Shown here: positions 12,363 through 33,541 of the stretch, in pieces | Numbering within the stretch: position 1 is the stretch's first letter | Layout of the letters: every line of letters starts with the position of its first letter | NCBI GenBank assembly: GCA_041907025.1 | Contig: JAYRIB010000062.1 | Span: 1 to 62,357 of the forward strand | Direction: 5' to 3' | From: Candidatus Saccharimonadia bacterium | GTDB lineage: Bacteria > Patescibacteriota > Saccharimonadia > CAILAD01 > JADZBC01 | DNA length: 62,357 bases | Translations under genes and position numbers: made by a program | Notes under the pieces: generated by a model | What the model was told of the DNA's origin: nothing | Databases searched by the model: none | What the model saw: only the letters and a program-made list of their open reading frames with translations

Positions 12363-12869
12363 ATGGTCATAAGATCGCACCCCGAAAACTGGAGTACTGA
12401 TTTGCCTACTGCAATCGTTGGTATTGGCCTCCCGGCCAGCGGCAAGACCACCACGCTCAAGCAGCTCGCGACTGAAAAGGGCGCTGCGTACATCTGCGCA
12501 GACGACATCCGTGAGCAGCTCAGCGGCAGCGCCAAAGATCACTCGCGCAACGACGATGCTTGGAGCATTATCTATCGCAAGATTGAGGCTGCCCTGTTGG
12601 AGGGCCATGATGTGGTCGTTGATGCCACGAACGCCAAAGTGAAGGATCGCCGACAGATGGCGCGCTTCTGCAGCAACCTTGGTGCGAAGACGATCGGCTA
12701 CTGGTTCGTGACGCCCTTGCGCGTTTGCATGAGGCGCAACCAGGCGCGAAAGCGCGTCGTGCCAGATCGGGCTATGCGTCGAATGGATTACTGCCTGCGT
12801 AGCGCTCCGCCCGACTTGTCCGACGGCTTCAGCAAGATCGTCAAGATCTTCCCTCCCCAGGGATCGTAG
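12363..12869 (+). CDS. P-loop kinase (AAA_33 / polynucleotide-kinase-like ATP-binding protein)
   Basis: Walker A GLPASGKTT. VVVDATN and the RRNQAR region are typical of small AAA_33/zeta-like kinases. Followed by the hairpin CCGCCCCCT...AGGGGGCGG. Confidence 0.7.
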   Translation: MVIRSHPENWSTDLPTAIVGIGLPASGKTTTLKQLATEKGAAYICADDIREQLSGSAKDHSRNDDAWSIIYRKIEAALLEGHDVVVDATNAKVKDRRQMARFCSNLGAKTIGYWFVTPLRVCMRRNQARKRVVPDRAMRRMDYCLRSAPPDLSDGFSKIVKIFPPQGS

Positions 12870-13060: not shown

Positions 13061-13203
13061 ATAGAAAGAGTCCGAGCACGTCTCGGGCTTTTTCTATGGT
13101 AGACTAGGTAAGAACCCAGGTTCGGTGGAGTAACGCGCGCAGCGTCAATGCCAAGCTCGCTTGCGCTTTGACCAAGCACGTTACGAAGGTCGCGGCAGCG
13201 ACC

Positions 13204-13221
13204 ATCCCACCCTCTCCGCCA
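13204..13221 (+). repeat. 18-nt direct duplicate of the tRNA-Ser(UGA) 3' end (att-like footprint)
   Basis: ATCCCACCCTCTCCGCCA is identical to 13043-13060. It is preceded by the hairpin GGTCGC-GGCA-GCGACC. The junction ACC|ATCCC is the same as at 12272-12279. Confidence 0.8.
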
Positions 13222-14483: not shown

Positions 14484-14560
14484 GTACCCGTAGCTCAGTT
14501 GGATAGAGCGTCGGCTTGCGGAGCCGAAGGCCGCAGGTTCAAGTCCCGCCGGGTACACCA
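14484..14560 (+). tRNA. tRNA-Arg (anticodon GCG as read from the loop TTGCGGA)
   Basis: Acceptor GTACCCG/CGGGTAC, D-arm GCTC-AGTTGGATA-GAGC, anticodon stem TCGGC/GCCGA, T-loop TTCAAGT, encoded CCA. The T-stem has one A-C mismatch. Confidence 0.8.
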
Positions 14561-14656
14561 TTGACTTATTCGAATATTTATGCTATTATAATCAGGTTCG
14601 CTATTTGGCGGAAGCAAGTTTCTATTTACATCCAAATCGACCAGGAGGTCATTCCA

Positions 14657-14986: not shown

Positions 14987-14998
14987 GCGTTCACTCGC

Positions 14999-15038
14999 CC
15001 AGGCGGACAGAGAAGAGCAATCAACTCTGTCCGCCTGG
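14999..15038 (+). terminator. GC-rich hairpin after the LysM gene
   Basis: CCAGGCGGACAGAG-12 nt-CTCTGTCCGCCTGG. Confidence 0.55.
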
Positions 15039-15197
15039 CGGGCTCAACCCAAGTATTTAATGTGAATTGAATGTTTAGGTCGAGACTAAGTTAGTAAATC
15101 ACTCCGTAAGCTATGGCATTGACTTACTAGCACTTTTATACTATTGTATACTTATTCTGTGCATCCGTGAAGGATAATCGCCTACCGAGAGGTACCC

Positions 15198-15602
15198 ATG
15201 CAGATCAGCATGCATTTCAGCATCCTGGACGAATACACCGACGTCGATTCGATGCTCGCAGCCATCGACAAGATGAAGGTGGGTGACGTGTACCACATCA
15301 CATTCCACCGAGACCCCGACGACATCGAACGAGAGGAGCTTGACGCCGTGGCGTTCTGGCGCCTCTGCGGCGACCGGACAAACGGTGCGGTCATGCCGCT
15401 CGAGCTCATCTACGAGGCGCAGCGGCACAACCTCAACTTCGTGGTGAACCGCGTGGGCACCCACGGCTGGTCGGGCTGCTACTCCTACAAAGTCAAGGTC
15501 CGGGCCGTCACCGCCTTCCTTCGGGCTGGTCTTCATGGCCTGATCCGGCAAGGACGGATCGCCTCCATCGAGAAGTTGGAAGCCGTGACCGCGGCCGCCT
15601 GA
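15198..15602 (+). CDS. Hypothetical 134-aa protein, GC3-rich
   Basis: GAGAGG RBS 5 nt upstream and an upstream TTGACT-17-TATTGT promoter. The strong G/C third-position bias is on this strand only. No family recognised. Confidence 0.6.
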   Translation: MQISMHFSILDEYTDVDSMLAAIDKMKVGDVYHITFHRDPDDIEREELDAVAFWRLCGDRTNGAVMPLELIYEAQRHNLNFVVNRVGTHGWSGCYSYKVKVRAVTAFLRAGLHGLIRQGRIASIEKLEAVTAAA

Positions 15603-15609
15603 GCACCAA

Positions 15610-15671
15610 GGTTGCCAGACCTCAAAACTGGCACTACCCAAGTTCATAACGAAAGTTGTGAGTTTAGGTGG
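15610..15671 (+). repeat. Two-hairpin repeat, copy 1
   Basis: GGTTGCCAGACCTCAAAACTGGCACTACCCAAGTTCATAAC-GAAA-GTTGTGAGTTTAGGTGG. It starts 8 nt after the stop codon of the 15198..15602 ORF. Confidence 0.85.
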
Positions 15672-15756
15672 TTGAGCTACTACAACTGTTGCATTTGTGC
15701 AAAATTGGAATATACTCCTAAATACCTTCCATCCTTCCTTAGAAAGGCGATAGCAC

Positions 15757-16377
15757 ATGGGGGAGAACCTCAAAGCAAGCGGACCGCAATTCGAGACTTT
15801 CCTGGGCAACTTCATCTATACCGCCCGCTGGGTATCTGGGTGTATTGTAGGAGCTCCCCTGGTGCTGGCCTACTACGCAGCCGACCGTGGCCTACGGACC
15901 GCTCGCCTCGTTTTGTCAGTCCTGATTCTGGCCTGCCTGCTGGTGCCAACTGCGATTGGTGTGCACCTCGGCATCCAGTGGGCGCGGCAAGACACGATGC
16001 TGCGAGAAGCGTGGCAGCCCACGCTAGCCACTCTTGACGACATCGAACCGGAGCGGCCAGGAGATGCATACTCTCTGTGGTATAGCTACAGGTTGCCAAA
16101 TTCGGAAAAGGATTACTACCTGTCGCAACCGCTCAAACAAAGCGCGCACAAAGGAGACCAGATCACCATCTGGGTGTCGGCAACTAGTCCAGATGACATC
16201 TACCTCGAAGATCCCTCGCCGATGTGGCCGAACAGCAGTCCGGAGACGCCGATTGTAAACGGAGTTATGGGCTTCTCACTTGGCCTGTTGGCCCTAGGTT
16301 GGGCAACTTGGTCCTACCTGCAGGCCAAGTTAGCTCGTAGAGCAAATCGAAGGTTGGCTGCCGAAAGGACGGAGTAG
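15757..16377 (+). CDS. Hypothetical membrane protein with TM helices at both ends (possibly DUF3592-like)
   Basis: 206 aa, GC3-rich. N-terminal helices (CIVGAPLVLAYY, LVLSVLILACLLVPTAIGV), a soluble middle region, and a C-terminal helix (VMGFSLGLLALGWATWSYL). Own promoter TTGCAT-16-TATACT. Confidence 0.6.
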   Translation: MGENLKASGPQFETFLGNFIYTARWVSGCIVGAPLVLAYYAADRGLRTARLVLSVLILACLLVPTAIGVHLGIQWARQDTMLREAWQPTLATLDDIEPERPGDAYSLWYSYRLPNSEKDYYLSQPLKQSAHKGDQITIWVSATSPDDIYLEDPSPMWPNSSPETPIVNGVMGFSLGLLALGWATWSYLQAKLARRANRRLAAERTE

Positions 16378-16382
16378 CCAAA

Positions 16383-16445
16383 GGTTGCCAGACCTCAAAA
16401 CTGGCACTACCCAAGTTCATAATCTTTAATTGTGAGTTTAGGTGG
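16383..16445 (+). repeat. Two-hairpin repeat, copy 2
   Basis: The first 40 nt and last 16 nt are identical to copy 1. The loop-closing pair changes from C-G to T-A, and the loop from GAAA to CTTTA. It starts 6 nt after the stop of the 15757..16377 ORF. Confidence 0.85.
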
Positions 16446-16552
16446 CAGCTCATAGGTCATTGTTGTTACGGTTGATTATCATAAGGTAATTGTGCTCTAA
16501 TAGCCTAGATCGAATTCGGTCAAACTGTCCCCTAGATGGAGAAGTACCTAGC

Positions 16553-17137
16553 ATGAGAGCACTTTTGTCTGTGTATGACAAGGCGGGCATCGTTGAGCTG
16601 GCTCAACAGCTTCACGACCTCGGCGTTGACCTCGTTTCGAGCGGGGGTACGGCTGACGTCATCGAAGCAGCCGGGATTCCCGTAACGCGGGTCGCCGACC
16701 TGACTGGCTACCCGGCCATGTTGAGCCACCGCGTTGCCACGCTCCACCCGAAGATCCACGGTGGCCTGTTGGCCGACAGGGACAACCCCGAGCACCTGGC
16801 CGAGGTCGAGAGGTACGAGATCCCCTTGATCGACCTGCTGGTCGTCAACCTCTACCCCTTCACCTCGGAGCCGTCGATCAAGCAGATCGATGTGGGTGGA
16901 CCGGCCATGATCCGTGCAGGTGCCAAGAACTATGCCTTCGTCGGAGTGGTGACTGACCCCGCCGACTACGACGTGGTGGTGAGCGAGATCAAGTTGTTCG
17001 GCAACCTGATGCTCAGCAGCCAACAACGGCTCGAGCTGGCTCGGAAGGCATTCGCCCACACCGCCGAGTACGACACCGCCATCGCTGCCTGGTTCCAGGA
17101 CGTGACCATCGATTCCGACGTCGGAAGCAGCACTTAA
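16553..17137 (+). CDS. Stand-alone PurH N-terminal domain (MGS-like IMP cyclohydrolase domain) with no AICAR transformylase domain
   Basis: 194 aa. ALLSVYDKAGIVELAQQL..GVDLVSSGGTA....G.PVT.V...TG.P.ML..RV.TLHPKIHGGLLA...VVNLYPF matches the PurH IMPCH domain. The ORF ends just after the domain boundary (AEYDTAIAAWF). GC3-rich. Confidence 0.75.
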   Translation: MRALLSVYDKAGIVELAQQLHDLGVDLVSSGGTADVIEAAGIPVTRVADLTGYPAMLSHRVATLHPKIHGGLLADRDNPEHLAEVERYEIPLIDLLVVNLYPFTSEPSIKQIDVGGPAMIRAGAKNYAFVGVVTDPADYDVVVSEIKLFGNLMLSSQQRLELARKAFAHTAEYDTAIAAWFQDVTIDSDVGSST

Positions 17138-17325
17138 CCACATGTCCCTACGACCATGAACGGCGCAGGGGTGGGTCTAAGCAGGCCCACCCCACAGCCA
17201 CACTCCAAGGATCTTCGAAAGAGGGTCCTCTTTCGTTAGAAGAGAAAGTTCGTAAATCGCTCTGTAAGCTATACCAAGTATTCTTTATGCATAGAGCCCA
17301 ACGAACTCTCTGGTATACTGCATTC

Positions 17326-17796
17326 ATGAAGTTACTCGTAATTGGTCCGCAGCTTTCGGGCAAGACCACCCTGGTCAGGCACCTGCGCAAGCATACCAAT
17401 ATGAACGTTTCGGAAATTGACGAGGAAATCCTGGCTGCTAACGACGGATCCTGGCCGAGCGATAATACACATAAGGACAAAGTGCTCATACCTGCCATTT
17501 ACGAGCGTATAGCGAAGCTAGATGACATTGTGTTCTTCGCCAACTACTTTGCTCCGCTTTCCCAAGTGCAGATGTTCAGAGATGCTGGCTTTACTGTTGT
17601 ACTGCTTGAGCCTCCTTACGAGGAGATGCTGCGTAGAAATAAACAGCGTATGGAGCAGGAGGGGTATGAAGACGCCACCCAATGGCTGATGGGACAACTA
17701 GAGAATCATAAAGACATTCTTGAAGCAGGATTAGTCGATAAAACATTGGACGCTACCCTTCCTACTGCCAAGATTGCTCAGTTATTGGAAGACTGA
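17326..17796 (+). CDS. P-loop NTPase / small kinase-like protein
   Basis: Walker A GPQLSGKTT. The start at 17326 lies 6 nt after TGGTATACT (extended -10), giving a leaderless arrangement. Native-like composition. Confidence 0.7.
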   Translation: MKLLVIGPQLSGKTTLVRHLRKHTNMNVSEIDEEILAANDGSWPSDNTHKDKVLIPAIYERIAKLDDIVFFANYFAPLSQVQMFRDAGFTVVLLEPPYEEMLRRNKQRMEQEGYEDATQWLMGQLENHKDILEAGLVDKTLDATLPTAKIAQLLED

Positions 17797-17936
17797 AGCA
17801 CGCTATCGAAAATTATGGCGTCACAAAGATAGTTCTGGCTTCGTCGAACAGACCAAGCATAAGCACTTCCTGCAGACTCCGTGTGGAGTTATTTTGCAAA
17901 CTTCCCGCTTTAATTGCCCGAGAACGTGTAGAGATA

Positions 17937-17965
17937 TTGACTTGCTCTATATATTATAGTACAAT
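17937..17965 (+). promoter_or_regulatory. Sigma70-like promoter of the dikinase operon
   Basis: TTGACT-17 nt-TACAAT in an AT-rich spacer. It predicts a leader of about 150 nt. Confidence 0.55.
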
Positions 17966-18055
17966 ATGCGCCTATTAACTTTGTATTAATTGCAGGAGTA
18001 CAAACACTCCTTTGACAACTGCATAGTTCAAAAAGTGTGCTGGCATAAGGTATGC

Positions 18056-18099
18056 GAATCAGCGAATAGTCTTTCGGCCGGAAGATTGTTCGCTGATTC
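18056..18099 (+). promoter_or_regulatory. 44-nt perfect palindrome (about 20-bp hairpin or operator) abutting the RBS
   Basis: GAATCAGCGAATAGTCTTTCGG|CCGGAAGATTGTTCGCTGATTC. Every position pairs (three are G-T). It ends 12 nt before AGGAGG and 20 nt before the ATG at 18120. Confidence 0.6.
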
Positions 18100-18119
18100 G
18101 ACTACCCCTAGGAGGAACC

Positions 18120-20306
18120 ATGTCAGCACCGCGCCAAGTGGTATTCCTCTTCAACGAGGGAGGCCAGGCAACCAAAACTCCCGCGTTTCGCGGCGGCAAG
18201 GGTGCAGGTTTGGCGGACATGGCGGCCCTCGGGCTTCCGGTTCCTCCAGGCTTCACCATCGCTACTTCGGTGGCACGTGCATTCGCCGAGACAGATCAAC
18301 TGCCTCGGCGGCTCGAAGGTCAAATCCGACGAGCCATGCGCAGCATCGAAAGCGAGAGTGGCTTCACGTTCGGTGACCCCAGTAACCCACTGTTGGTATC
18401 GGTGCGCTCCGGCGCTCCGGTTTCCATGCCCGGGATGATGGACACCGTGCTGAACGTTGGCCTACAAGAAAGCATGCTTGAGTCGCTCGAGCGCGTCAGC
18501 GGACGAGAGTTCGCTCAGGACACATACGAGCGCTTCTTGCGTCAATTTGGATCCGCAGTCCTCGATCTCCCGACCGAAGACGATCAGCTTCTCATCAAGG
18601 AGTCGGCGAGCCTCGTGCCCGATGACCCCTACGAACAGTTGATTATGGCAATCCGAGCCGTTCTGCTCTCCTGGAACAGCGATCGCGCGTGCGCGTACCG
18701 CGACAACCAGGAGATCCCTCACTGGTGGGGGACAGCAGTTACCGTTCAGGCCATGGCCTTTGGTAACCGAGATGATCGGTCGGCAACCGGCGTGGTGTTT
18801 AGCCACGACGTCAACTCAGGCGCCGAGGGTCTCACTGGAGAATTCCTCGTTCGCGCCCAGGGTGAAGACATCGTGAGTGGGACAACCTCGCCACAGTCGA
18901 TTGCGTGCATGCAAGCCTGGCATCCGCAGCTCTTCCAAGAGCTTCAAGACCAGGTTCGTCTGCTCTCAGACCATCTCGACAGCATGGTCGATGTTGAGTT
19001 CACCGTTGATAGCGGCAAGCTCTTCATCCTCCAGGTACGACGTGCTACACGCACTCCACTCGCTGCGGCGACCTTCGCGGTTCGTCGTGTGTGGAGTAGG
19101 CGATGGACTCACGGCGAAGCTGTTGCAAGCCTGAGCAAGGCAGAGCTTTCCCAGCTCGATTCAAGCCAGGCCAAGCTGTCAGGAGACTCTTTGCGACTTG
19201 CCGCCTGCGGTGTTGCTGCTTCAAGCGGCTGCGCGGTAGGCGAAGTCGTCTATAGCTCCCAGCGGGCAGTAGAACTTGCCAAGACTGGTCGGCAGGTAGT
19301 TCTGGTTCGTCCAGATACATCACCCGACGACCTACCCGGCATGCTGGCTGCAGTTGCGGTCGTTACGGCTCGTGGCGGCATGAGCTGCCACGCAGCTGTA
19401 GTCTGCCGCGGTCTCAACCGACCGGCAGTCGTTGGCGCCAGCGGCCACCTTACCACTCTGGGCACAAAGCCCTCGGAAGGTGTGGTCGTTTCCGTCGACG
19501 GCGCTACGGGCAAAGTCTACTTCGGCGAGCAGCCGATCCTCGGAGGTATCAACTCCAAAGAGGCACGACTGATCAAAGAGTGGGTCAAGCAGCCGATGCC
19601 TCGCAAAATCGAGTTCAACACGCTCGATCAGCGAGTTTCGGCGAACGCCTATCTGGCCGCTTTCTACATGACCGAGGCCATGGCTTACCAGTCCCGCGGC
19701 AGCGAACTGGAGGCACAAGCACGGGAGCTTCATGAGTCGGTCGTAGCCACGATCGCCCCATACTTCGCCACTTACCTGGCCCTGGCCACTGGTGGCGAAG
19801 TCCGTCACTACAAAGGCAGCTTCCTCCATAAAGCTCCAAATGAGCTAGTAGTGGACTTCCATGCTACTGCAATGCTCAGCGCGAACAGCCGTGAGCGGGC
19901 GCAACTGGAGACAGCGGTCATCCTCGACGGCATTAGTGTTAAGCGACAAGCTCGGTTCACCGAACTCGTAGCGCGCACTTTTGCGATAGAGGACGAGTGG
20001 TCGAGCGCTTATGGCGGCCCGAGGTGGGCCAAGATCGCCGAGACACTGCACGACTACATTGGAGGAACTACACCGGCAGCCGTGTTCGTCGATGCGGTTT
20101 TCGACCTGCGCCACAATGGCGGGGTGCTCTTCAACAAGCACCCAATGTTCACCGAGAAGACTAATGAGCACGAGCTGCATCACATGCTCGAGCTCAAGAA
20201 GACCCGCACCATCCAGGAGTTGTGGCTAGAATTTGGCTGCGTTGACGTGGCTGACTTCTGGTGGAGCGGGTTGTACATCAAGGGCCACAAGGCAAAACTA
20301 TGGTGA
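18120..20306 (+). CDS. PPDK/PEP-synthase-family dikinase (ATP-grasp plus swivel phospho-His domain) with an unrecognised C-terminal domain
   Basis: 728 aa. The N-terminus GGKGAGLADMAALGLPVPPGFTI matches the PPDK nucleotide-binding domain. The mobile-domain motif TARGGMSCHAAVVCRGL carries the catalytic His. The last ~230 aa (contains GGEVRHY, YGGPRWAKIAE and DLRHNGGVLFNKHP) do not resemble the PEP/pyruvate TIM barrel. Strong RBS AGGAGG. Confidence 0.8.
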   Translation: MSAPRQVVFLFNEGGQATKTPAFRGGKGAGLADMAALGLPVPPGFTIATSVARAFAETDQLPRRLEGQIRRAMRSIESESGFTFGDPSNPLLVSVRSGAPVSMPGMMDTVLNVGLQESMLESLERVSGREFAQDTYERFLRQFGSAVLDLPTEDDQLLIKESASLVPDDPYEQLIMAIRAVLLSWNSDRACAYRDNQEIPHWWGTAVTVQAMAFGNRDDRSATGVVFSHDVNSGAEGLTGEFLVRAQGEDIVSGTTSPQSIACMQAWHPQLFQELQDQVRLLSDHLDSMVDVEFTVDSGKLFILQVRRATRTPLAAATFAVRRVWSRRWTHGEAVASLSKAELSQLDSSQAKLSGDSLRLAACGVAASSGCAVGEVVYSSQRAVELAKTGRQVVLVRPDTSPDDLPGMLAAVAVVTARGGMSCHAAVVCRGLNRPAVVGASGHLTTLGTKPSEGVVVSVDGATGKVYFGEQPILGGINSKEARLIKEWVKQPMPRKIEFNTLDQRVSANAYLAAFYMTEAMAYQSRGSELEAQARELHESVVATIAPYFATYLALATGGEVRHYKGSFLHKAPNELVVDFHATAMLSANSRERAQLETAVILDGISVKRQARFTELVARTFAIEDEWSSAYGGPRWAKIAETLHDYIGGTTPAAVFVDAVFDLRHNGGVLFNKHPMFTEKTNEHELHHMLELKKTRTIQELWLEFGCVDVADFWWSGLYIKGHKAKLW

Positions 20307-20314
20307 AAGGAGCC

Positions 20315-20788
20315 ATGATGCCAAGAAGCCATCAGCCCCACGTTGGCGCAAGCGTCAGTGTGGGGGGATACAGTGTGTATGTCGGGGGCAGTCAGGACCT
20401 GGCAGGCGCACCGGACATCTTCCGCGAGATGGACATCATCATCCCTCTCAACGGCATAGTGTCAACCATCTTCGAGGGCACAGTGCTCCCCATCGTCCTT
20501 CAGGACTTCGGTGGAGTACCCCGCGACTGGGAGCAGATCCTGCGCGAGCAGGTCATCCCGGCTCTCGAAGCGGACAAAAGGGTTCTCGCCTACTGTACGG
20601 CCGGCCACGGTCGCACAGGTACGTTGCTGGCATCGCTCGTTGCGCTGCTGGAACCAGACATCGAGGACCCGATTGCCACGGTACGCGCGCGTCACTGCGA
20701 GCACGCTGTGGAAACCCGAGCACAGGCGGAGGCCATCTTCGCCCTGCTCGACCAACCCATCCCAGAGCCGTACACGAGGCTCTACTAG
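20315..20788 (+). CDS. Cys-based (CX5R) protein-tyrosine / dual-specificity-type phosphatase
   Basis: 157 aa. The P-loop CTAGHGRTG fits C-x5-R-[ST]. AAAGGAG RBS. The start lies 9 nt after the dikinase stop. Confidence 0.75.
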   Translation: MMPRSHQPHVGASVSVGGYSVYVGGSQDLAGAPDIFREMDIIIPLNGIVSTIFEGTVLPIVLQDFGGVPRDWEQILREQVIPALEADKRVLAYCTAGHGRTGTLLASLVALLEPDIEDPIATVRARHCEHAVETRAQAEAIFALLDQPIPEPYTRLY

Positions 20789-20804
20789 GCCGAAAGGGGC
20801 CACC

Positions 20805-21167
20805 ATGAGGCAGCAAGACAAGCAGAAGTGGTACATGGGGGGAACGGAGGGCACCGGGGAGTACCTGGTGATCGCCCGAGCTCCCTACCGCGGCAGGATC
20901 GGCGTACGCCTCCTGCCGGGCGGGATCGTGCGCATCCGCGTCGAGCCCGTCAACACTGCCGCAGCGCAGCGGCTGGCTGAGCACTTCCCCGTCGGGGAGT
21001 GGAAGCAGCCCGACCTCGGTCAGCTGCGGTTCTCGCGGGTGCTCAGCGCCAGCGAGGCCATCCCGGTGATCGAGGCGGCCATCACGGCGCTCAACACCAG
21101 GGGCCTGGAGCCCAACTCCAAGGCCCGTACCTGGCGCCGCAAGCTCCGCTCGCACGCGGGCGGCTGA
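20805..21167 (+). CDS. Hypothetical 120-aa protein, third gene of the dikinase operon
   Basis: ATG 5 nt after GAAAGGGG and 17 nt after the phosphatase stop. GC3-rich. No motif recognised. Confidence 0.55.
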   Translation: MRQQDKQKWYMGGTEGTGEYLVIARAPYRGRIGVRLLPGGIVRIRVEPVNTAAAQRLAEHFPVGEWKQPDLGQLRFSRVLSASEAIPVIEAAITALNTRGLEPNSKARTWRRKLRSHAGG

Positions 21168-21222
21168 GACCAGAACGCATCCGGGTGCGCATAGATAGTG
21201 GCTGGGCCCGGAATCCCAGTCA

Positions 21223-21251
21223 TTGACATTCAGCACGTTAAGTGCTAAAGT
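21223..21251 (+). promoter_or_regulatory. Sigma70-like promoter of an ORF-free GC-rich unit
   Basis: TTGACA-17 nt-TAAAGT. A second possible promoter, TTGGCG-18-TAATAC, lies at 21407-21436. Confidence 0.45.
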
Positions 21252-21257
21252 GATGCT

Positions 21258-21832
21258 CTCAGCCAATCAAAGGAGATGCTGTGAGTTAAAGAGAAGCCAA
21301 AAAGAAGCTGTAGTAGAGGTTTTGGTTGTGTGGCTCATCGAGCCCCGGGACCCCTTTGCCGGTACGCAGGGACAGTCTACACTTGAAAAGCTAAAGTAAA
21401 ACCATGTTGGCGTGAGGTTTGTTTTTAAGATAATACTCATGCTAACAGTGGCTGCCATGCGCCGAAGGGTTGATTGTAACTTCGGTTACATTTGCCCAAG
21501 CGTGGTCTGGAGTCAGTTCCCTGTCCGGATTGACTTCAGTATGTAGGCCTTGTGGCGCCCAGCAGGGTGTCTCGGCAGAATGCGGCCTGGCAACCGCAGC
21601 GTAGACAGAACGCAGGCAAGCTACCTTGGAGTGGGTAGTGTAAAGTGCCATCACGGAGCAGGGCAGCAGCCCTAGGCGACGGCGAGGTTTCGGGTTACTG
21701 TATTAGTGTACCGAGACCAGCTATCGCGACAATCGGTCCGGAGCTCCTACCTAATCTAAAAAAATCTTTTGCACTCGTGCAGGAGTGGCCCCTCCCGGAC
21801 GCTTTGGCGTTTAGGAGGGGCTCTTTCTTTTC
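21258..21832 (+). ncRNA. Candidate structured non-coding transcript(s) of about 0.4-0.58 kb, class unknown
   Basis: Bounded by a promoter and a terminator. No ORF has a start context. Many local hairpins (e.g. GTAAC-TTCG-GTTAC). GC-rich relative to its flanks. Confidence 0.35.
21788..21832 (+). terminator. Intrinsic terminator
   Basis: GCCCCTCC-18 nt-GGAGGGGC followed by TCTTTCTTTTC. Confidence 0.65.
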
Positions 21833-21842
21833 CCCGAAAGAT

Positions 21843-21905
21843 GGTTGTCAGACCCTAAAACTGGTACTACCCAAGATCATAACTTAGCGTTGTGAGTTTA
21901 GGTGG
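21843..21905 (+). repeat. Two-hairpin repeat, copy 3 (diverged)
   Basis: GGTTGTCAGACCCTAAAACTGGTACTACCCAAGATCATAAC-TTAGC-GTTGTGAGTTTAGGTGG. There are 5 substitutions in the first 40 nt; the two that fall in hairpin 1 both convert Watson-Crick pairs to G-U pairs. Confidence 0.8.
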
Positions 21906-21920: not shown

Positions 21921-22676
21921 TTATGTCGGCGCAGATGCCGCCCAAATTACGTCATACATCGCACCCATCATCTCGTGATGCTCAGCTGAAGTAACGAGAA
22001 GGGCATACCCACTTGGGAGAGACGATATATACAGTACATTTGAATCATACATAAACACGGTCGTCCTAAATTTGCCTCCAAAATCCGCTGGCATCATGCG
22101 TATTTCAGAACGCTGGTAGTAATTCTGGATAATACCGGGGTCGATCTTTTCTGCCCACAAATTGCGCGTACGAACCCCCAAACGATTGCGCGTAGAGACA
22201 TAATGCGTGACAAATTCTTCGCCAAACTGCCAAAAGAAGTTTTGCTTGGGAACGATGGAATCAATACGGCGCCCATGACAATATACTGCCTCCATAATAA
22301 CACTGCGAACAGCAGCAATTCCTTCGTAAAAAGAAACTTGGGGTTTATGATCCCCATCAGGCTGCTTGGCTACGATTGAGTTAAGGGCATCGACCTCCTC
22401 CCGCAATGCGTCAAGCTCTGACTGCCTTTCGGCTACGATGGTCTGCAAGCGCGACACAGGCTCCACTCTCCACATGGACGGCTCGGCAAGTCCTGTTTTG
22501 CTGAGCAGTCCGCGGCGTTCCAGTGCGGAAATAGCGTAGTAAACCGTAGGTCGACTTCGACCCGTTGTCTTAATGACGTCGCTCGCAGTCCTTGCGCCTG
22601 CAAACATTGCCAGATAGACGTCAACTTCGGATTCTTGAAGCCCCAGTTTAAGGAGCGTGTTGCGTGGTTGTTCCAT
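21921..22676 (-). CDS. TrmB-family transcriptional regulator
   Basis: 251 aa. The N-terminal wHTH LGLQESEVDVYLAMFAGARTASDVIKTTGRSRPTVYYAISALERRGLL is typical of the TrmB family. Native-like composition. Confidence 0.75.
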   Translation of the reverse strand: MEQPRNTLLKLGLQESEVDVYLAMFAGARTASDVIKTTGRSRPTVYYAISALERRGLLSKTGLAEPSMWRVEPVSRLQTIVAERQSELDALREEVDALNSIVAKQPDGDHKPQVSFYEGIAAVRSVIMEAVYCHGRRIDSIVPKQNFFWQFGEEFVTHYVSTRNRLGVRTRNLWAEKIDPGIIQNYYQRSEIRMMPADFGGKFRTTVFMYDSNVLYISSLPSGYALLVTSAEHHEMMGAMYDVIWAASAPT

Positions 22677-31461: not shown

Positions 31462-31552
31462 TACTGCCTATTTTACCACGGCGCTAGCAGCAGCTCCTAA
31501 ACACAAAACGCTCAGGCGGATCCTGAGCGTTTTGTGGAGCGAGAGTGGAGCG

Positions 31553-31915
31553 CTAAAACTGCTTGATAACAAAGTTGGCAATACTATAAGCAAGCAAAGA
31601 CACAACCAAGCCAATAACGGCGTACAAGATAGTGTCCTTAGCTGCCGTGGTGTTCTTAGAATCACCACCCGAGAGGACGTAGCGGAAGCCACCGATGATA
31701 ATCATAATAACTGAGATTATCCCAACTGCCAGAATGAGTACATTGGTAATGTTCCCGAGCTGTGATTCCAGTGTTGGGCCACCCGTCTGTCCTGTACATT
31801 CAGCGCCAGCAGCAGCTCCACCGGTAAGGTCGCAAGCAGCAAAAGCCCGCTGTGAGCCGAGGAGAACGGCTGTTGCAGCGGACGACAAGATAAGGTTTAG
31901 CCTAGCTAAGCGCAT
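31553..31915 (-). CDS. T4SS pilin-like protein (TrbC/VirB2-like), paralog 1
   Basis: Start set at M49 of the track ORF (MRLARLNLILSSAATAVLLGSQRAFA = signal peptide). It has a variable region, then two hydrophobic helices joined by GGFRYVLSGGDSKNTTAAKDTILYA. Confidence 0.7.
   Translation of the reverse strand: MRLARLNLILSSAATAVLLGSQRAFAACDLTGGAAAGAECTGQTGGPTLESQLGNITNVLILAVGIISVIMIIIGGFRYVLSGGDSKNTTAAKDTILYAVIGLVVSLLAYSIANFVIKQF
31619..31699. repeat. 81-nt near-identical segment shared with 31986..32066
   Basis: By my reading the two 81-nt segments differ at about 5 positions. They encode the conserved inter-helix loop of pilin paralogs 1 and 2. Confidence 0.8.
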
Positions 31916-31919
31916 GGCT

Positions 31920-32273
31920 CTAGAACTGGTCAATGACGAACTGCATAATCGAGTAGGATAGCAGGGCCACAACCACACCGATGATGGCGTACAGGATGGT
32001 ATCCTTAGCTGCCGTGGTGTTTTTAGAATCACCACCTGAGAGGACGTAGCGGAAGCCACCGATGATCAGCATGATGACCGAGATGATACCAATCACGGTA
32101 ATCATGATGTTTGTTACGTTGGCGACCGAATCAGTTAAGCTGGTGGTCTGTAGGTTACCCTTAGCCGCATTAATGCCCTCTTGAGCATCAGAGTTAGCAG
32201 CCATTGCAGTGCTTGCGCTCAGCATAGCGCCAGTAAGGCCTAAGCCGACTTTAGAAGTGAGTTGTTTGAACAT
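31920..32273 (-). CDS. T4SS pilin-like protein, paralog 2
   Basis: 117 aa with the same architecture. GGFRYVLSGGDSKNTTAAKDTILYAIIGVVVALLSY. Confidence 0.7.
   Translation of the reverse strand: MFKQLTSKVGLGLTGAMLSASTAMAANSDAQEGINAAKGNLQTTSLTDSVANVTNIMITVIGIISVIMLIIGGFRYVLSGGDSKNTTAAKDTILYAIIGVVVALLSYSIMQFVIDQF
31986..32066. repeat. 81-nt near-identical segment shared with 31619..31699
   Basis: See the partner feature. Confidence 0.8.
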
Positions 32274-32371
32274 GTTTATGATTTCTCCTTAACAATTATG
32301 CTTAGATTGTAACGTAGCGGAGAAGGTTTGACAATACAAGAGCCTGAGAACATGCGCAGGAGAGTGTAGGC

Positions 32372-32722
32372 TTAGAATCGGCCGAGTACGAAGTTGACTA
32401 TCGCACCAGCTAAGAGGGTAATAACGAGGCCAATGACTGCATAAAGGATTGTGTCCTTAGCCGTGCCGGCCTTCTTGGAATCACCAGCAGATATAGCATA
32501 CATTATCCCACCGACAATAATCATAATGACAGAGATGATACCCGCGGCGTACAGGAGGGTGTTAGTGATATTGGGGATTATTTCATCCACGGTAGCCGGA
32601 GTGCCACTAAGATTGTCTATTTTAATTCCAGTAGATGTGGCTGCGGATGCGACAGCTCCTACCCGCAGTGTGGCTGCGGTAGAAATCATGGCGACAGTAA
32701 TTAACTTAAGTAATCTCTTCAT
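32372..32722 (-). CDS. T4SS pilin-like protein, paralog 3
   Basis: 116 aa. GGIMYAISAGDSKKAGTAKDTILYAVIGLVITLL. Confidence 0.7.
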   Translation of the reverse strand: MKRLLKLITVAMISTAATLRVGAVASAATSTGIKIDNLSGTPATVDEIIPNITNTLLYAAGIISVIMIIVGGIMYAISAGDSKKAGTAKDTILYAVIGLVITLLAGAIVNFVLGRF

Positions 32723-32765: not shown

Positions 32766-33152
32766 TTAGTTAAGAGCTGAGAGTACGAAGTTTCCAATAG
32801 CCGCCGCGCTGATAGCAAGTACTAAGCCCAAGATTGCATAAGTAATGGTAGTCTTAGCCTTCTTGGTTCCGCTAGGATTGCCAGTTGATACAGCTAACTG
32901 GATGCCGCCTATGATTATAAATATTACCGAAACAATACCTACGGCGGTAAATGCCAAGTTAGTAACGTTAGATATGAGTTTTTCAACACCTGCAAGACAC
33001 GATGTATCAACTCCATCAAAGATACCTCCCGAAGCAGTAGTTCCTTGGCAGTTGTCTCCCGACGCAGCTCGAGAAATTGCAGGAATTACAAGGAACAAGG
33101 CTAACTGCACAAGAGTCAAAAGTCTTAATGCGATATTCTTACAGCTAGGCAT
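32766..33152 (-). CDS. T4SS pilin-like protein, paralog 4 (Cys-containing variable region)
   Basis: 128 aa. GGIQLAVSTGNPSGTKKAKTTITYAILGLVLAI. Confidence 0.65.
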   Translation of the reverse strand: MPSCKNIALRLLTLVQLALFLVIPAISRAASGDNCQGTTASGGIFDGVDTSCLAGVEKLISNVTNLAFTAVGIVSVIFIIIGGIQLAVSTGNPSGTKKAKTTITYAILGLVLAISAAAIGNFVLSALN

Positions 33153-33160
33153 GGTCGTCC

Positions 33161-33541
33161 TTAGCCTCCTATCGCAATTCCGAGTAAGCTCAGAATCGCC
33201 CTAAAGCTTATGAGGAGCACCAAACCAACAATCGCATTAGTAAGTCGGCTCTTTGCCGACTTAAGTCTGTCTGGGCTATCAGCAGCAGAGGCCATCTGTA
33301 CTCCGGATATAACCACGGCGAGGACGAATAGGGAACCAAATATGCCAACCATCCAGTTCGCGACATTCCCTATGAACTCGTATATATCGCTCGTGCAAAA
33401 CTCCTGAGGCAAGAAGCTACACTCAACAGCGGCGGAACTACTTGGTAGTACTGCCTCTTCCGCCCTTGCAAACTGCGGCAAGATCATCATCGCCAGAGCA
33501 AGAGTAGTAACTATGACAGTTTTGATGTATCGAACCTTCAT
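33161..33541 (-). CDS. T4SS pilin-like protein, paralog 5 (most divergent)
   Basis: 126 aa with a signal peptide, two Cys residues and two hydrophobic helices joined by SGVQMASAADSPDRLKSAKSRLTNAIVGLV. Confidence 0.6.
   Translation of the reverse strand: MKVRYIKTVIVTTLALAMMILPQFARAEEAVLPSSSAAVECSFLPQEFCTSDIYEFIGNVANWMVGIFGSLFVLAVVISGVQMASAADSPDRLKSAKSRLTNAIVGLVLLISFRAILSLLGIAIGG

Follow-up and report, generated by a model that had tools for sequence, protein, structure and literature searches.

A two-hairpin element is present in four copies in the window, the 62,357-nt stretch of Saccharibacteria DNA analysed here. It belongs to a family that Rfam does not contain, and we consider it most likely to be a transcribed RNA signal positioned where messages end. 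Our tentative reading, at a probability of about 45%, is that it is a transcribed 3'-UTR module that replaces the terminator or stabilises the 3' end, with its second hairpin (H2) read by a putative factor. The search for further copies suggested in the first-pass annotation of this DNA recovered the element in ~10 Saccharibacteria assemblies, as 24 distinct sequences that show covariation, the host group being wastewater Saccharibacteria. No match to the element was found in Rfam or in the phage, plasmid or IMG/VR collections. The element is a discrete module of ~65 nt with sharp borders, and is 88-91% identical between genomes, compared to ~72-79% DNA identity for the flanking genes.

A search of the window with the hairpin-2 pattern returned exactly three sites, copies 1-3, with 0.00 expected from 100 shuffles. 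The three copies listed in the first-pass annotation are thus real, and their number needed correction: a fourth, divergent copy (copy 0) was matched by the covariance model at 32.8 bits with the first model and at 52.3 bits with model R2. The rest of the window holds no further copy, giving four per 62 kb. The sequence details described earlier were seen again. Copies 1 and 2 share their first 40 nt and their last 16 nt exactly, and the loop-closing pair is C-G in copy 1 and U-A in copy 2; in copy 3, a G-C and a C-G pair of hairpin 1 are changed to G.U and U.G. In hairpin 2 of copy 0, three core pairs are swapped compensatorily, with the C.A mismatch and the tandem G.U/U.G retained. On either side of the element, homology between the window copies is lost after a few nt, so they are not leftovers of a segmental duplication, an origin that had been raised as a possibility.

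Table 1. Coordinates of the element copies and neighbouring features in the window.
Feature	Position	Strand	Remarks
tRNA-Arg(gcg)	14484..14560	+	Fixed left border of the variable, cassette-bearing region
Promoter-like module TTGACTTAT-N12-TATGCTATTAT	14561..14589	+	Abuts the tRNA CCA end; would drive ORF 0
Cassette ORF 0, small secreted LysM-like protein, 103 aa	14675..14986	+	Weak LysM match; stop codon ~10 nt upstream of copy-0 hairpin 1
Copy 0 (divergent; not in first-pass annotation)	14996..15084	+	Covariance-model match 15022-15084; hairpin 1, long GC-rich stem, 14996-15040; hairpin 2, 15043-15084, TCAACCCAAGTATTTAAT-GTGA-ATTGAATGTTTAGGTCGAG
Promoter-like module, second copy	15119..15147	+	Repeat family D10; 34 nt past copy 0; would drive ORF 1
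Cassette ORF 1, 134 aa, without Pfam family	15198..15602	+	Stop TGA 15600-15602
Copy 1	15610..15671	+	74.8 bits; starts at 8th nt past ORF 1 stop; hairpin 1, 15613-15633, TGCCAG-ACCTCAAAA-CTGGCA; hairpin 2, 15634-15671, loop GAAA
Promoter-like site TTGCAT-16-TATACT	15689..15716	+	Predicted from sequence; 17 nt past copy 1; conserved with the L025 homologue of ORF 2
Cassette ORF 2, membrane protein, 206 aa, without Pfam family	15757..16377	+	Stop TAG 16375-16377
Copy 2	16383..16445	+	81.5 bits; starts at 6th nt past ORF 2 stop; hairpin 1, 16386-16406; hairpin 2, 16407-16445, loop CTTTA
Canonical intrinsic terminator	21788..21832	+	Just upstream of copy 3
Copy 3	21843..21905	+	76.5 bits; hairpin 1, 21846-21866 (G.U and U.G pairs); hairpin 2, 21867-21905, loop TTAGC
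TrmB-family regulator gene, convergent	21921..22676	-	Stop codon 15 nt from copy 3 end

Both hairpins are backed by covariation, in agreement with the structure-preserving substitutions first noticed in the window. Among the 24 distinct copies, 97.4% of cells were paired; shuffles gave 89.1±0.6% and slid partners 31-44%. Both partners were changed in ten pairs, where shuffles gave 4.0±1.3 and none of 500 reached ten. Divergent copies swap core pairs and keep the wobbles. The stems of hairpin 1 (H1) vary with compensation, conserving structure and not sequence. The H2 stem, a 17-bp irregular helix, has an identity of 0.85 (0.78 among copies outside the search-pattern matches) and conserves a tandem G.U/U.G, one more U.G and a C.A; its loop, at 0.34-0.41, is free to vary, as had been proposed. 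If the opposite strand were folded, four conserved G.U/U.G pairs would become A.C mismatches, and the fold is therefore specific to the + strand. As RNA, the + strand of copies 1-3 folds at -20.6 to -24.5 kcal/mol with z of -2.0 to -2.5, whereas the - strand gives z of about -0.15 in copies 1-2 and -1.8 in copy 3. As ssDNA, the three canonical copies reach merely -4.8 to -9.1 kcal/mol, and the strand bias is absent. RNA gives a far stronger fold than ssDNA, and the folded strand is the sense strand.

The element was originally placed at the 3' ends of modules, and this position holds across the family. Of 25 copies, 24 have an ORF of 80-230 codons ahead of them on the same strand, and no copy stands before a gene start unless an ORF precedes it too. 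Nearly all begin 2-60 nt past the stop of a small hypothetical ORF on the same strand, many of them at 2-9 nt; the distances given earlier for copies 1 and 2 are correct (Table 1). The sole exception is copy 3, which lies between a terminator and the 3' end of a convergent TrmB-family gene, as already described. Copy 3 is orthologous to the L009 and L022 copies, which do follow an ORF, and it reflects replacement rather than insertion, the ancestral ORF and its H1 being gone. The ORFs that carry the element form co-oriented cassettes with one site 3' of each ORF, in arrays of 1-4 beside a fixed tRNA border, and occupy variable sites adjoining tRNA or tmRNA genes. The tRNA-Arg(gcg) that borders the array in the window also does so in L006, L009, L022, L024 and L025, and array content differs between related genomes. 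Cassette proteins are small orphans, part of them with secreted or membrane features, and the element is the only sequence conserved between otherwise unrelated cassettes.

In two independent cases, the element occupies the slot of a textbook hairpin-plus-T-run terminator. The window gene at 15757-16377 is followed by the element and its L025 orthologue (17158-17775) by a canonical terminator, with homology picking up again 5-8 nt past H2. A comparison of L025 13948-14496 with L022 and L009 likewise places element and terminator in a shared slot. In these swaps, the gene stays in place and the terminator is replaced, not kept beside an insert. Together with the + strand RNA fold and the position after stop codons, the swap makes a 3' stabiliser or processing signal, which was among the roles put forward at first, the best fit. 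No canonical terminator lies within -120 to +150 nt of 21 of the 25 copies; terminators occur near 3/25 copies, a deficit that is not clearly distinct from the crude background of 44/169 gene ends. Since three copies adjoin a canonical terminator, upstream of copy 3 and downstream of L003b and L015, the element is not always the sole 3' signal. Like intrinsic terminators, it sits where a transcription unit ends, immediately ahead of the next promoter, has hairpins in tandem and, in two orthologue pairs, trades places with a canonical terminator. Unlike them, it has an AU- and GU-rich rather than GC-rich H2, whose stem sequence is conserved across unrelated genes and genomes, and no T-run or U-tract was found after it, so that intrinsic termination would be non-canonical. 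In Actinobacteria, U-tract-free hairpin terminators ('I-shaped') and tandem ones ('V-shaped') are described. The strong conservation of the H2 stem sequence would not usually be expected of a simple terminator or stabiliser and counts against our explanation.

We infer that the element is transcribed in sense as the terminal part of the upstream mRNA, capping independently transcribed accessory genes of one Saccharibacteria lineage. One to three structure-only hairpins (H0/H1) precede H2 and would fold directly behind the terminating ribosome, followed by the sequence-specific 17-bp irregular helix. Jointly, the hairpins would take over from a canonical hairpin-plus-U-tract terminator in setting the mRNA 3' end and shielding it, acting as a U-tract-free terminator or as a barrier to 3' exonucleases. 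The near-invariant H2 stem and its free loop imply recognition by a hypothetical trans-acting factor.

Some copies are mosaics, with two junctions that fall between H1 and H2. L002 and L005 have a common H2, loop and 6.7 kb of downstream sequence and differ in H1 and in the upstream ORF; copy 3 of the window has its H2 loop and downstream flank in common with L009 and L022, with a different H1. Identical H2 loops occur together with different H1 types. A site acting at the DNA level would also be compatible with these junctions and with the clustering of cassettes at tRNA and tmRNA CCA ends, and the first-pass annotation had considered a recombination site that defines cassette boundaries. Such a site would be a folded ssDNA similar to integron attC, cut at the 5' foot of H2 by a recombinase encoded at another locus, with promoter-ORF-H1 cassettes inserted or exchanged at platforms beside tRNA and tmRNA genes. 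The arrays are indeed integron-like in their co-oriented small orphan ORFs, each closely trailed by a structured site with conserved stem ends and a variable middle, in their strain-variable content and in the strand-specific fold. The conserved mismatches could be recognition features like attC extrahelical bases, the promoter modules always abut a real or pseudo ...CCA end, and the L011 cassette is flanked on both sides by a 65-nt direct repeat containing the 3' end of tRNA-Met. We nevertheless consider this explanation unlikely. No recombinase, transposase or reverse transcriptase adjoins the copies, none of the arrays has an integrase or HUH gene nearby, and the lone serine recombinase belongs to a prophage-like insert that ends without the element. 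The ssDNA fold is weak and lacks strand bias, copy 3 reflects replacement, and a plain terminator can take the place of the element with the gene unmoved. Similarity of shared cassettes ends at the H1/H2 junction, at the H2 end or 30 nt further, and homologous exchange fits these variable ends equally well or better. As the only conserved sequence among unrelated cassettes, the element is also a short homology tract, and cassette exchange and homogenisation of copies may be a side effect of the 3'-UTR module that we favour. Membership of the integron attC class fails on its defining tests: the element does not carry the R''/R' core (RYYYAAC...GTTRRRY) at its outer ends; the element consists of two or more separate hairpins and attC of one; intI, attI and Pc are absent and the cassettes have their own promoters; and the better fold is that of the top (sense) strand, with RNA favoured over DNA.

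A selfish palindromic repeat of the REP/MITE type, spread by a RAYT-like or other transposase encoded at another locus and landing near gene 3' ends with no host function, would account for a discrete multi-copy module with sharp borders, and for one subtype being attached to unrelated ORFs within single genomes and between genomes. Like the REP/BIME repeats of Enterobacteria and Pseudomonas (RAYT/TnpA-REP), the element is an imperfect palindrome of ~35-40 nt with conserved sequence that lies outside genes just 3' of stop codons, where it would be co-transcribed with the upstream gene. REPs stabilise the upstream mRNA, influence termination and affect translation if within ~15 nt of the stop; many copies of the element start 2-9 nt past it. 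The GTAG and palindrome that had been read on the opposite strand as the hallmark of REPs are present only in window-type copies, relatives having TTAC, TCAC, CCAC or TCAA at that place, and the assignment is not supported. Copies occur singly, are always oriented the same way with respect to the gene before them, are low in number and never form clusters or inverted pairs, and no Y1/RAYT gene was found in ~270 kb of surrounding DNA, nor any other transposase in the DNA examined. Thus, the element fails the defining tests of GTAG, inverted pairs and RAYT. It also differs from REPs in its structure-only second hairpin and optional hairpins, which make a modular 3' UTR, in its Saccharibacteria (CPR) hosts and in the tie of its copies to accessory cassettes beside tRNA genes. 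No target-site duplication was found at two filled-versus-empty comparisons, where the terminator was replaced, and the compensatory changes and kept wobbles in the old, diverged copies indicate that the fold is under selection. A selfish repeat is therefore improbable.

Alternatively, the element may be a 3'-UTR-derived small regulatory RNA or decoy, released from the mRNA tail by processing, in which H2 titrates or guides a factor in trans without acting on its own mRNA. In favour of this, the RNA structure is conserved, strand-specific and located at mRNA 3' ends, H2 is conserved as a binding site would be, and the last bases of its 3' arm, AGGUGAU or AGGUGGU, in our own reading resemble a Shine-Dalgarno sequence. 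There is, however, no terminator at the 3' end to define a stable species, no evidence for a discrete transcript and no conserved single-stranded seed, the loops varying freely, and several copies per genome sit on unrelated genes; we regard this role as quite unlikely. A small RNA with its own promoter, as suggested earlier, is disfavoured because many copies start 2-9 nt past a stop. That H2, an imperfect inverted repeat, is a dsDNA operator for a dimeric regulator, such as the TrmB-family protein encoded next to copy 3, is very improbable. The half-sites are spaced 3 to 8 nt apart and are unequal at the G.U positions of the fold, same-genome copies differ by compensatory pairs (copy 0 versus copies 1-3), hairpin 1 keeps its structure without its sequence, and most copies are far from any regulator gene.

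Other repeats share single features with the element. The pneumococcal BOX A-B-C repeats are built from modular hairpin units, and Neisseria Correia/NEMIS, BOX and ERIC/IRU occur in mRNA untranslated regions, where hairpins in such repeats are RNase substrates. The element differs in lacking whole-unit terminal inverted repeats and target duplication, in its strictly sense orientation and in its far fewer copies, and no sequence similarity to any of them was found. A weak hint of expression comes from cDNA-type wastewater runs. In three of four, sparse undirected contigs cover just the L009 cassette ORF, and one undirected contig spans the entire L009 element.

The two-hairpin element occurs in four copies in the window, all in direct orientation and all single. 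The first-pass annotation had described three of them on the forward strand, and its account was borne out by the sequence. A pattern spanning hairpin 2 (H2, a 17-position irregular stem) matches only these three sites, with 0.00 matches expected in shuffles; copies 1 and 2 share identical stretches of 40 nt and 16 nt and differ by a C-G to U-A change in the loop-closing pair; hairpin 1 (H1) of copy 3 keeps its pairing with G.U and U.G pairs; copies 1 and 2 begin at the 8th and 6th nt past stop codons; and copy 3 has a terminator ahead of it and a convergent TrmB-family gene behind. The fourth, divergent copy (copy 0) was found with a covariance model of the family, which returned nothing further when run over the whole 62 kb with filters off. 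The window itself comes from a Saccharibacteria (CPR/Patescibacteria) chromosome and encodes ValRS, TsaD, FemAB, T4SS pilins and four tRNAs, and DNA near-identical to it is present in activated-sludge metagenomes. Beyond the three units behind tRNA-Arg(gcg) lie a truncated purH-like gene, a kinase gene, a gene for a PPDK_N-domain (PEP-utilising family) protein and a phosphatase-like ORF, and then a non-coding stretch with a canonical terminator, which leads into copy 3 and the TrmB-family gene. The coordinates of these and other features are collected in the table.

Coordinates and settings of the features discussed (window, forward-strand positions; L numbers, loci from other Saccharibacteria assemblies or metagenomes)
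Feature	Locus	Position	Remark
Element copy 0	window	15022-15084 (+)	behind a small LysM-like ORF
Element copy 1	window	15610-15671 (+)	
Element copy 2	window	16383-16445 (+)	
Element copy 3	window	21843-21905 (+)	
tRNA-Arg(gcg)	window	14484-14560	followed by three units of promoter-like site, small ORF and element
Promoter-like module	window	14561-14589, 15119-15147	
Promoter-like module	L012	near 4916 (-)	
Promoter-like module	L022	5639	
Promoter-like module	L006	1860, 2451	
Co-oriented cassettes	window	14.6-16.4 kb	element immediately 3' of each ORF
Co-oriented cassettes	L022	5.2-7.2 kb	element immediately 3' of each ORF
Copies directly downstream of tRNA-Arg(gcg)	window, L006, L009, L022, L024, L025		
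Copies near tRNA-Arg(cct)	L007, L008		
Copies near tRNA-Met	L004, L011, L001		
Copies near tmRNA	L012		
Cassette protein gene	window	15198-15602	protein look-up gave ~1 kb contigs only
ORF followed by element	window	15757-16377	
Homologue of the preceding ORF	L025	17158-17775	promoter and 5' UTR in common
Gene followed by element	L025	13948-14496	homologues in L022 and L009
Truncated purH-like gene	window	16553-17137	directly behind copy 2
AAA_33-type kinase genes	window	12363-12869, 17287-17796	
Non-coding stretch	window	21223-21840	~560 nt
Promoter-like site of the stretch	window	21223-21251	
Canonical terminator of the stretch	window	21788-21832	strong
TrmB-family gene	window	21921-22676 (-)	convergent with copy 3
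209-nt direct repeats (three)	window	31550-32577, 32766-33541	62-74% identity
Decayed tRNA-Met	L011	2820-2935	same as L004 60-178, minus strand
Prophage-like insert	L020	10810-19694	~8.9 kb
Prophage-like insert	L021	10810-18797	~8 kb
Empty site of the insert	L022	5092	same sample as L020
~120-nt element	window	13100-13221	
~120-nt element	L009	4345-4468, 5758-5879, 6165-6286	
~120-nt element	L006	836-955, 7413-7535	
~120-nt element	L022	3448-3570, 3731-3852	
~120-nt element	L002	170-300, 1405-1525	

Scanning the GTDB species genomes once with the H2 pattern turned up 16 matches, spread over six Saccharibacteria/Patescibacteria MAGs. Running the model over the retrieved loci recovered extra copies that the pattern had missed, and more were obtained from orthologous loci located via a conserved protein upstream of tRNA-Arg. 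A relaxed pattern returned two divergent copies (L014 and L015) as the sole matches in a JGI metagenome scan. The family thus stands at 24 distinct sequences from ~10 assemblies. Covariation was assessed on these 24, and positional and terminator counts on 25 copies, a small and partly non-independent sample that includes orthologous and model-fitted copies. Rfam held nothing overlapping the element either at the gathering threshold or at E <= 10, with tRNAs alone passing the threshold. The IMG/VR pattern scan gave 0 matches, blastn left the element unmatched among INPHARED phages and PLSDB plasmids, and searches of the full-text literature on Saccharibacteria/Patescibacteria (cassettes, attC, islands, hairpins, terminators) found nothing on it. 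Several ideas were considered and rejected, namely a known self-cleaving ribozyme (no Rfam match), a DGR target hairpin (no TR/VR repeat or reverse transcriptase), a TnpB omega-RNA (upstream ORFs small and mutually unrelated) and a Xer/dif-like site (spacer length of 3 to 8 nt).

The fold of the element is covariation-supported and strand-specific. Standard pairs fill 97.4% of cells across the 24 distinct copies, compared to 89.1 ± 0.6 after shuffling and 31-44% with slid partners, and both sides have changed in 10 of 21 pairs, compared to 4.0 ± 1.3 in shuffles (0/500). The H1 sequence is wholly replaced between copies with pairing kept (TGCCAG/CTGGCA, GCTGG/CCAGC, GATCCGA/TCGGGTC and GATGCCCG/CGGGCATC). 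Some copies carry one or two additional hairpins between the stop codon and H1, and these covary too, for example CTGCAC/GTGCAG versus CTGCGC/GCGCAG. The H2 stem is near-invariant, at an identity of 0.85 (0.78 in copies that the pattern did not find); the search pattern fixed part of H2, and copies found by synteny or by model give the same picture. Its loop is free to vary (identity 0.34-0.41). Inner pairs of H2 are swapped compensatorily in divergent copies (window copy 0, L015, L022a and L025), which retain the tandem G.U/U.G and a further U.G; the C.A is mostly retained, and is U-A in two copies. Read on the opposite strand, the four wobble pairs become A.C mismatches. The + strand RNA fold reaches -20.6 to -24.5 kcal/mol (z -2.0 to -2.5), and the - strand RNA fold has z of about -0.15 in copies 1 and 2 and -1.8 in copy 3.

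Behind a same-strand ORF of ~80-230 codons lie 24 of the 25 copies, and the distance from stop codon to model start is 2-9 nt in ten copies, with larger gaps mostly filled by the extra hairpins. The exception is window copy 3, whose orthologues in L009 and L022 do follow an ORF. The upstream ORFs are unrelated orphans, several with signal peptides or transmembrane segments, and the cassette proteins scanned, including ten further ones, matched no Pfam family. The copies are gathered in short variable stretches bordered by tRNA or tmRNA genes plus housekeeping genes; those that are not beside a tRNA or tmRNA gene lie between housekeeping genes such as TrmD, MnmG, DinB and MsrA. Between tRNA-Arg(gcg) and tRNA-Ser(cga), gene content differs per genome and one to four elements are present.

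Like canonical intrinsic terminators, the element lies where a transcription unit ends. Such terminators consist of a GC-rich hairpin with an immediate U-tract, whereas a T-run follows H1 or H2 in no copy, and for want of a U-tract the element is not a canonical terminator. A hairpin-plus-T-run terminator is also absent from -120 to +150 nt in 21 of 25 copies, and what usually comes next is a promoter-like site 17-60 nt behind the element or, in other cases, a convergent gene. Two independent orthologue comparisons bear on this slot. Where the window ORF at 15757-16377 has its element, the L025 homologue is followed by GAGACCCTCG-TCTCCA-TCGAGGGTCTC-TTTCTTTCC; similarity between the two stops at the stop codon and restarts 5-8 nt past H2. 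Another L025 gene has an element, and its L022 and L009 homologues have GGCCCACGG...CCGTGGGCC-TTTTTCG instead. These comparisons show that the element is a discrete ~65-75-nt unit, exchangeable for an intrinsic terminator. Three copies do adjoin a canonical terminator, which weighs against a simple terminator-replacement reading, and the deficit of terminators near copies (3/25, compared to a crude background of 44/169 gene ends) is not significant in what is a weak test.

We tentatively favour, at a probability of roughly 45%, the reading that the element is a transcribed 3'-end module standing in the terminator's place, with H2 bound by a putative factor and used as an exchange anchor. Sense transcription would carry the element as the tail of the upstream mRNA, and the hairpins would fold directly behind the stop codon. 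There they would set the 3' end and shield it, substituting for a canonical terminator and acting as a non-canonical terminator or as an exonuclease block. H2 would be recognised sequence-specifically by the putative factor, and its conservation suggests that it may also be the recombination anchor for cassette swaps. The family, its fold and strand, its position, the exchange with terminators and the mosaics are shown; sense transcription, the 3'-end activity and the factor are inferred. This reading and its rivals are not fully exclusive; REPs, for instance, combine mobility with a role in RNA.

Transcript data are sparse. Logan contigs holding the window, from DNA and 'RNA?' runs, are broken at the repeat and undirected, and the RNA-type runs tried for the window (sparse, undirected libraries) gave no coverage of the element. 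L011 yielded a single 151-nt contig, on the 3' end of its ORF. The L009 cassette ORF is covered in three of four cDNA-type wastewater runs, by strand-less contigs limited to that ORF, and one of the three runs spans the whole element plus 60 nt beyond.

Mosaic loci bear signs of DNA-level exchange. Identity between L002 and L005 is 94% over 6.7 kb, with the homology beginning inside the element: H2, its loop and the downstream flank are in common, and H1 and the upstream ORF differ. Window copy 3 has the H2 loop CTTAGCG and the downstream TrmB flank in common with L009 and L022c, and its H1 is of the window type; as the ancestral ORF is missing from the window, the event was a replacement, not an insertion. 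The two L006 copies have one loop in common and different H1 sequences. A conserved promoter-like module, TTGACTTAT-N12-TATGCTATTAT, is in every case immediately preceded by a ...CCA end, real or pseudo: that of tRNA-Arg in the window, that of tmRNA in L012 and a CCA-like end elsewhere, where the module three times lies 29-48 nt after an element. Judged from sequence, these CCA-abutting modules suggest that tRNA and tmRNA 3' ends may be where cassettes are joined. In L011, a cassette is flanked by a direct repeat of 65 nt in which the tRNA-Met 3' end is included. A decayed copy of the 3' two-thirds of a tRNA-Met lies ~10 nt after a copy of the element and is followed by the 65-nt repeat of the sequence downstream of the intact gene (CCA end and terminator), which places the cassette between a tRNA gene and a pseudo-tRNA. 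The tRNA-Arg 3' end has no second copy in the window, so the region is no simple island between att repeats. Because the end points of similarity have no fixed position, we read the mosaics as homologous exchange and gene conversion, probably anchored at the conserved helix, tRNA genes or the shared promoter module, with site-specific recombination as the alternative. A 'joint' seen in one run (X2, 21765 to 21867) was considered as a deletion ending exactly at the H2 foot; this was ruled out, as the 'joint' turned out to be a divergent allele, 104 nt long, that covers the terminator and H1 and has conserved sequence on either side.

The rivals include a selfish REP/MITE-like repeat, which we consider unlikely. 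REP/RAYT elements (REPINs) lie outside genes, mostly 3', a location that the element shares. They have a high copy number and frequent inverted doublets or clusters, whereas the element occurs four times in 62 kb, direct and single. Their genomes hold a RAYT (Y1 transposase) gene, typically REP-flanked; the window ORFs scanned and the 8-20 kb neighbourhoods of copies in 10 assemblies contained no gene for an integrase, a Y1/RAYT transposase, an HUH protein or a reverse transcriptase near any copy, and a 240-aa conserved neighbour of the array, considered as a recombinase, proved to be a membrane protein. The first-pass annotation had taken GTAG on the opposite strand as a REP hallmark. This did not hold, as the corresponding CTAC is found in window-type copies only and others have TTAC, TCAC, CCAC or TCAA. 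With GTAG not conserved, no inverted pairs, a low copy number and no RAYT seen in the DNA scanned, the element is not a REP/RAYT member. A MITE would have terminal inverted repeats and a target-site duplication; at the two filled-versus-empty comparisons the element replaces ~75 nt including a terminator, with no duplication visible and with borders too diverged to read exactly. The element may work most like REP/BIME elements and hairpin terminators that have no U-tract or stand in tandem. Falling outside REP/RAYT, attC, canonical terminators and Rfam, it is classed with structured repeats outside genes at mRNA 3' ends.

A recombination site acting as folded DNA would suit the mosaics and the cassette layout, as integron cassettes are likewise co-oriented with a site immediately 3' of each ORF. 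attC recombines as folded bottom-strand ssDNA; the element's wobble pairs are on the top strand and its ssDNA fold is weak: in the three canonical copies it reaches -4.8 to -9.1 kcal/mol, with the full H2 not formed and no strand bias. An attC site is a single imperfect hairpin with R'' (RYYYAAC) and R' (GTTRRRY) at its outer ends, in contrast to the two or more separate hairpins of the element, in which AAC...GTT sits at the H2 apex and not at the base. No Phage_integrase match lies near any array, and the intI/attI/Pc setting of an integron was not found. Without R boxes at the outer ends or intI, and with several hairpins and a promoter for each cassette, the element is not an attC, and we give a folded-DNA site a low probability. 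Also rather improbable is an integron-like CPR cassette system without an adjacent integrase, for which the element would serve as the folded recombination site and in which promoter-ORF-hairpin units would be captured serially at tRNA/tmRNA CCA ends with strand exchange at the 5' foot of H2. Strand exchange would then fall to a recombinase or HUH nuclease whose gene lies elsewhere, or to host machinery that works on ssDNA taken up by natural transformation. Should a DNA-level reading hold, the family would represent a new type of cassette capture. We think it improbable that the element is a 3'-UTR-derived small RNA or decoy. A double-stranded DNA operator, against which the turnover of H1 with pairing kept speaks, is very improbable indeed.

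To our knowledge, descriptions of regulatory or structural RNA signals from Saccharibacteria and other CPR bacteria are few, and both the ending and stabilisation of their transcripts and the uptake of accessory genes by such small genomes are poorly understood. The element family offers a testable handle on CPR 3'-end formation and accessory-gene uptake. Its near-invariant H2 helix predicts a specific binding partner, and since the element marks variable cassettes beside tRNA genes, it is a practical flag for accessory-gene hot spots.

Several further features were seen in and around these regions. The truncated purH-like gene, inside the variable region, encodes an MGS domain and the first ~60 residues of an AICARFT domain. 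One of the two AAA_33-type kinase genes of the window is in the variable region; L006 and L025 carry homologues of it at this hot spot, which makes it a semi-conserved array resident. The non-coding stretch ahead of copy 3 has no convincing ORF and no Rfam match and carries several small indels in a related strain; it may encode a small peptide or a non-coding RNA. Elsewhere in the window, three diverged 209-nt direct repeats overlap paralogous T4SS-pilin genes that stand in a row ahead of large ORFs; in the syntenic locus L024 the next gene has a TrbL-type T4SS domain. In L020 and L021, a prophage-like insert with genes for a large serine recombinase, an S24 repressor and an SNase-domain protein occupies the tRNA-Arg(gcg) 3' end, and the final portion of this tRNA is duplicated at the far end of the insert. 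The element-bearing cassette array lies beyond this insert, whose own ends carry no element.

A second conserved element, of ~120 nt, is found just behind tRNA genes (Ser-gct, Ser-tga, Ser-cga and Arg-gcg), past the tRNA's own terminator, and in L002 and L005 also behind a copy of the two-hairpin element. It has no Rfam match. RNAalifold predicts a three-way junction in which 8 pairs have changed on both sides, and the final 15-19 nt repeat the adjacent tRNA 3' end in most tRNA-following copies. One possibility for this element is a tRNA-linked non-coding RNA, another an att-type remnant.
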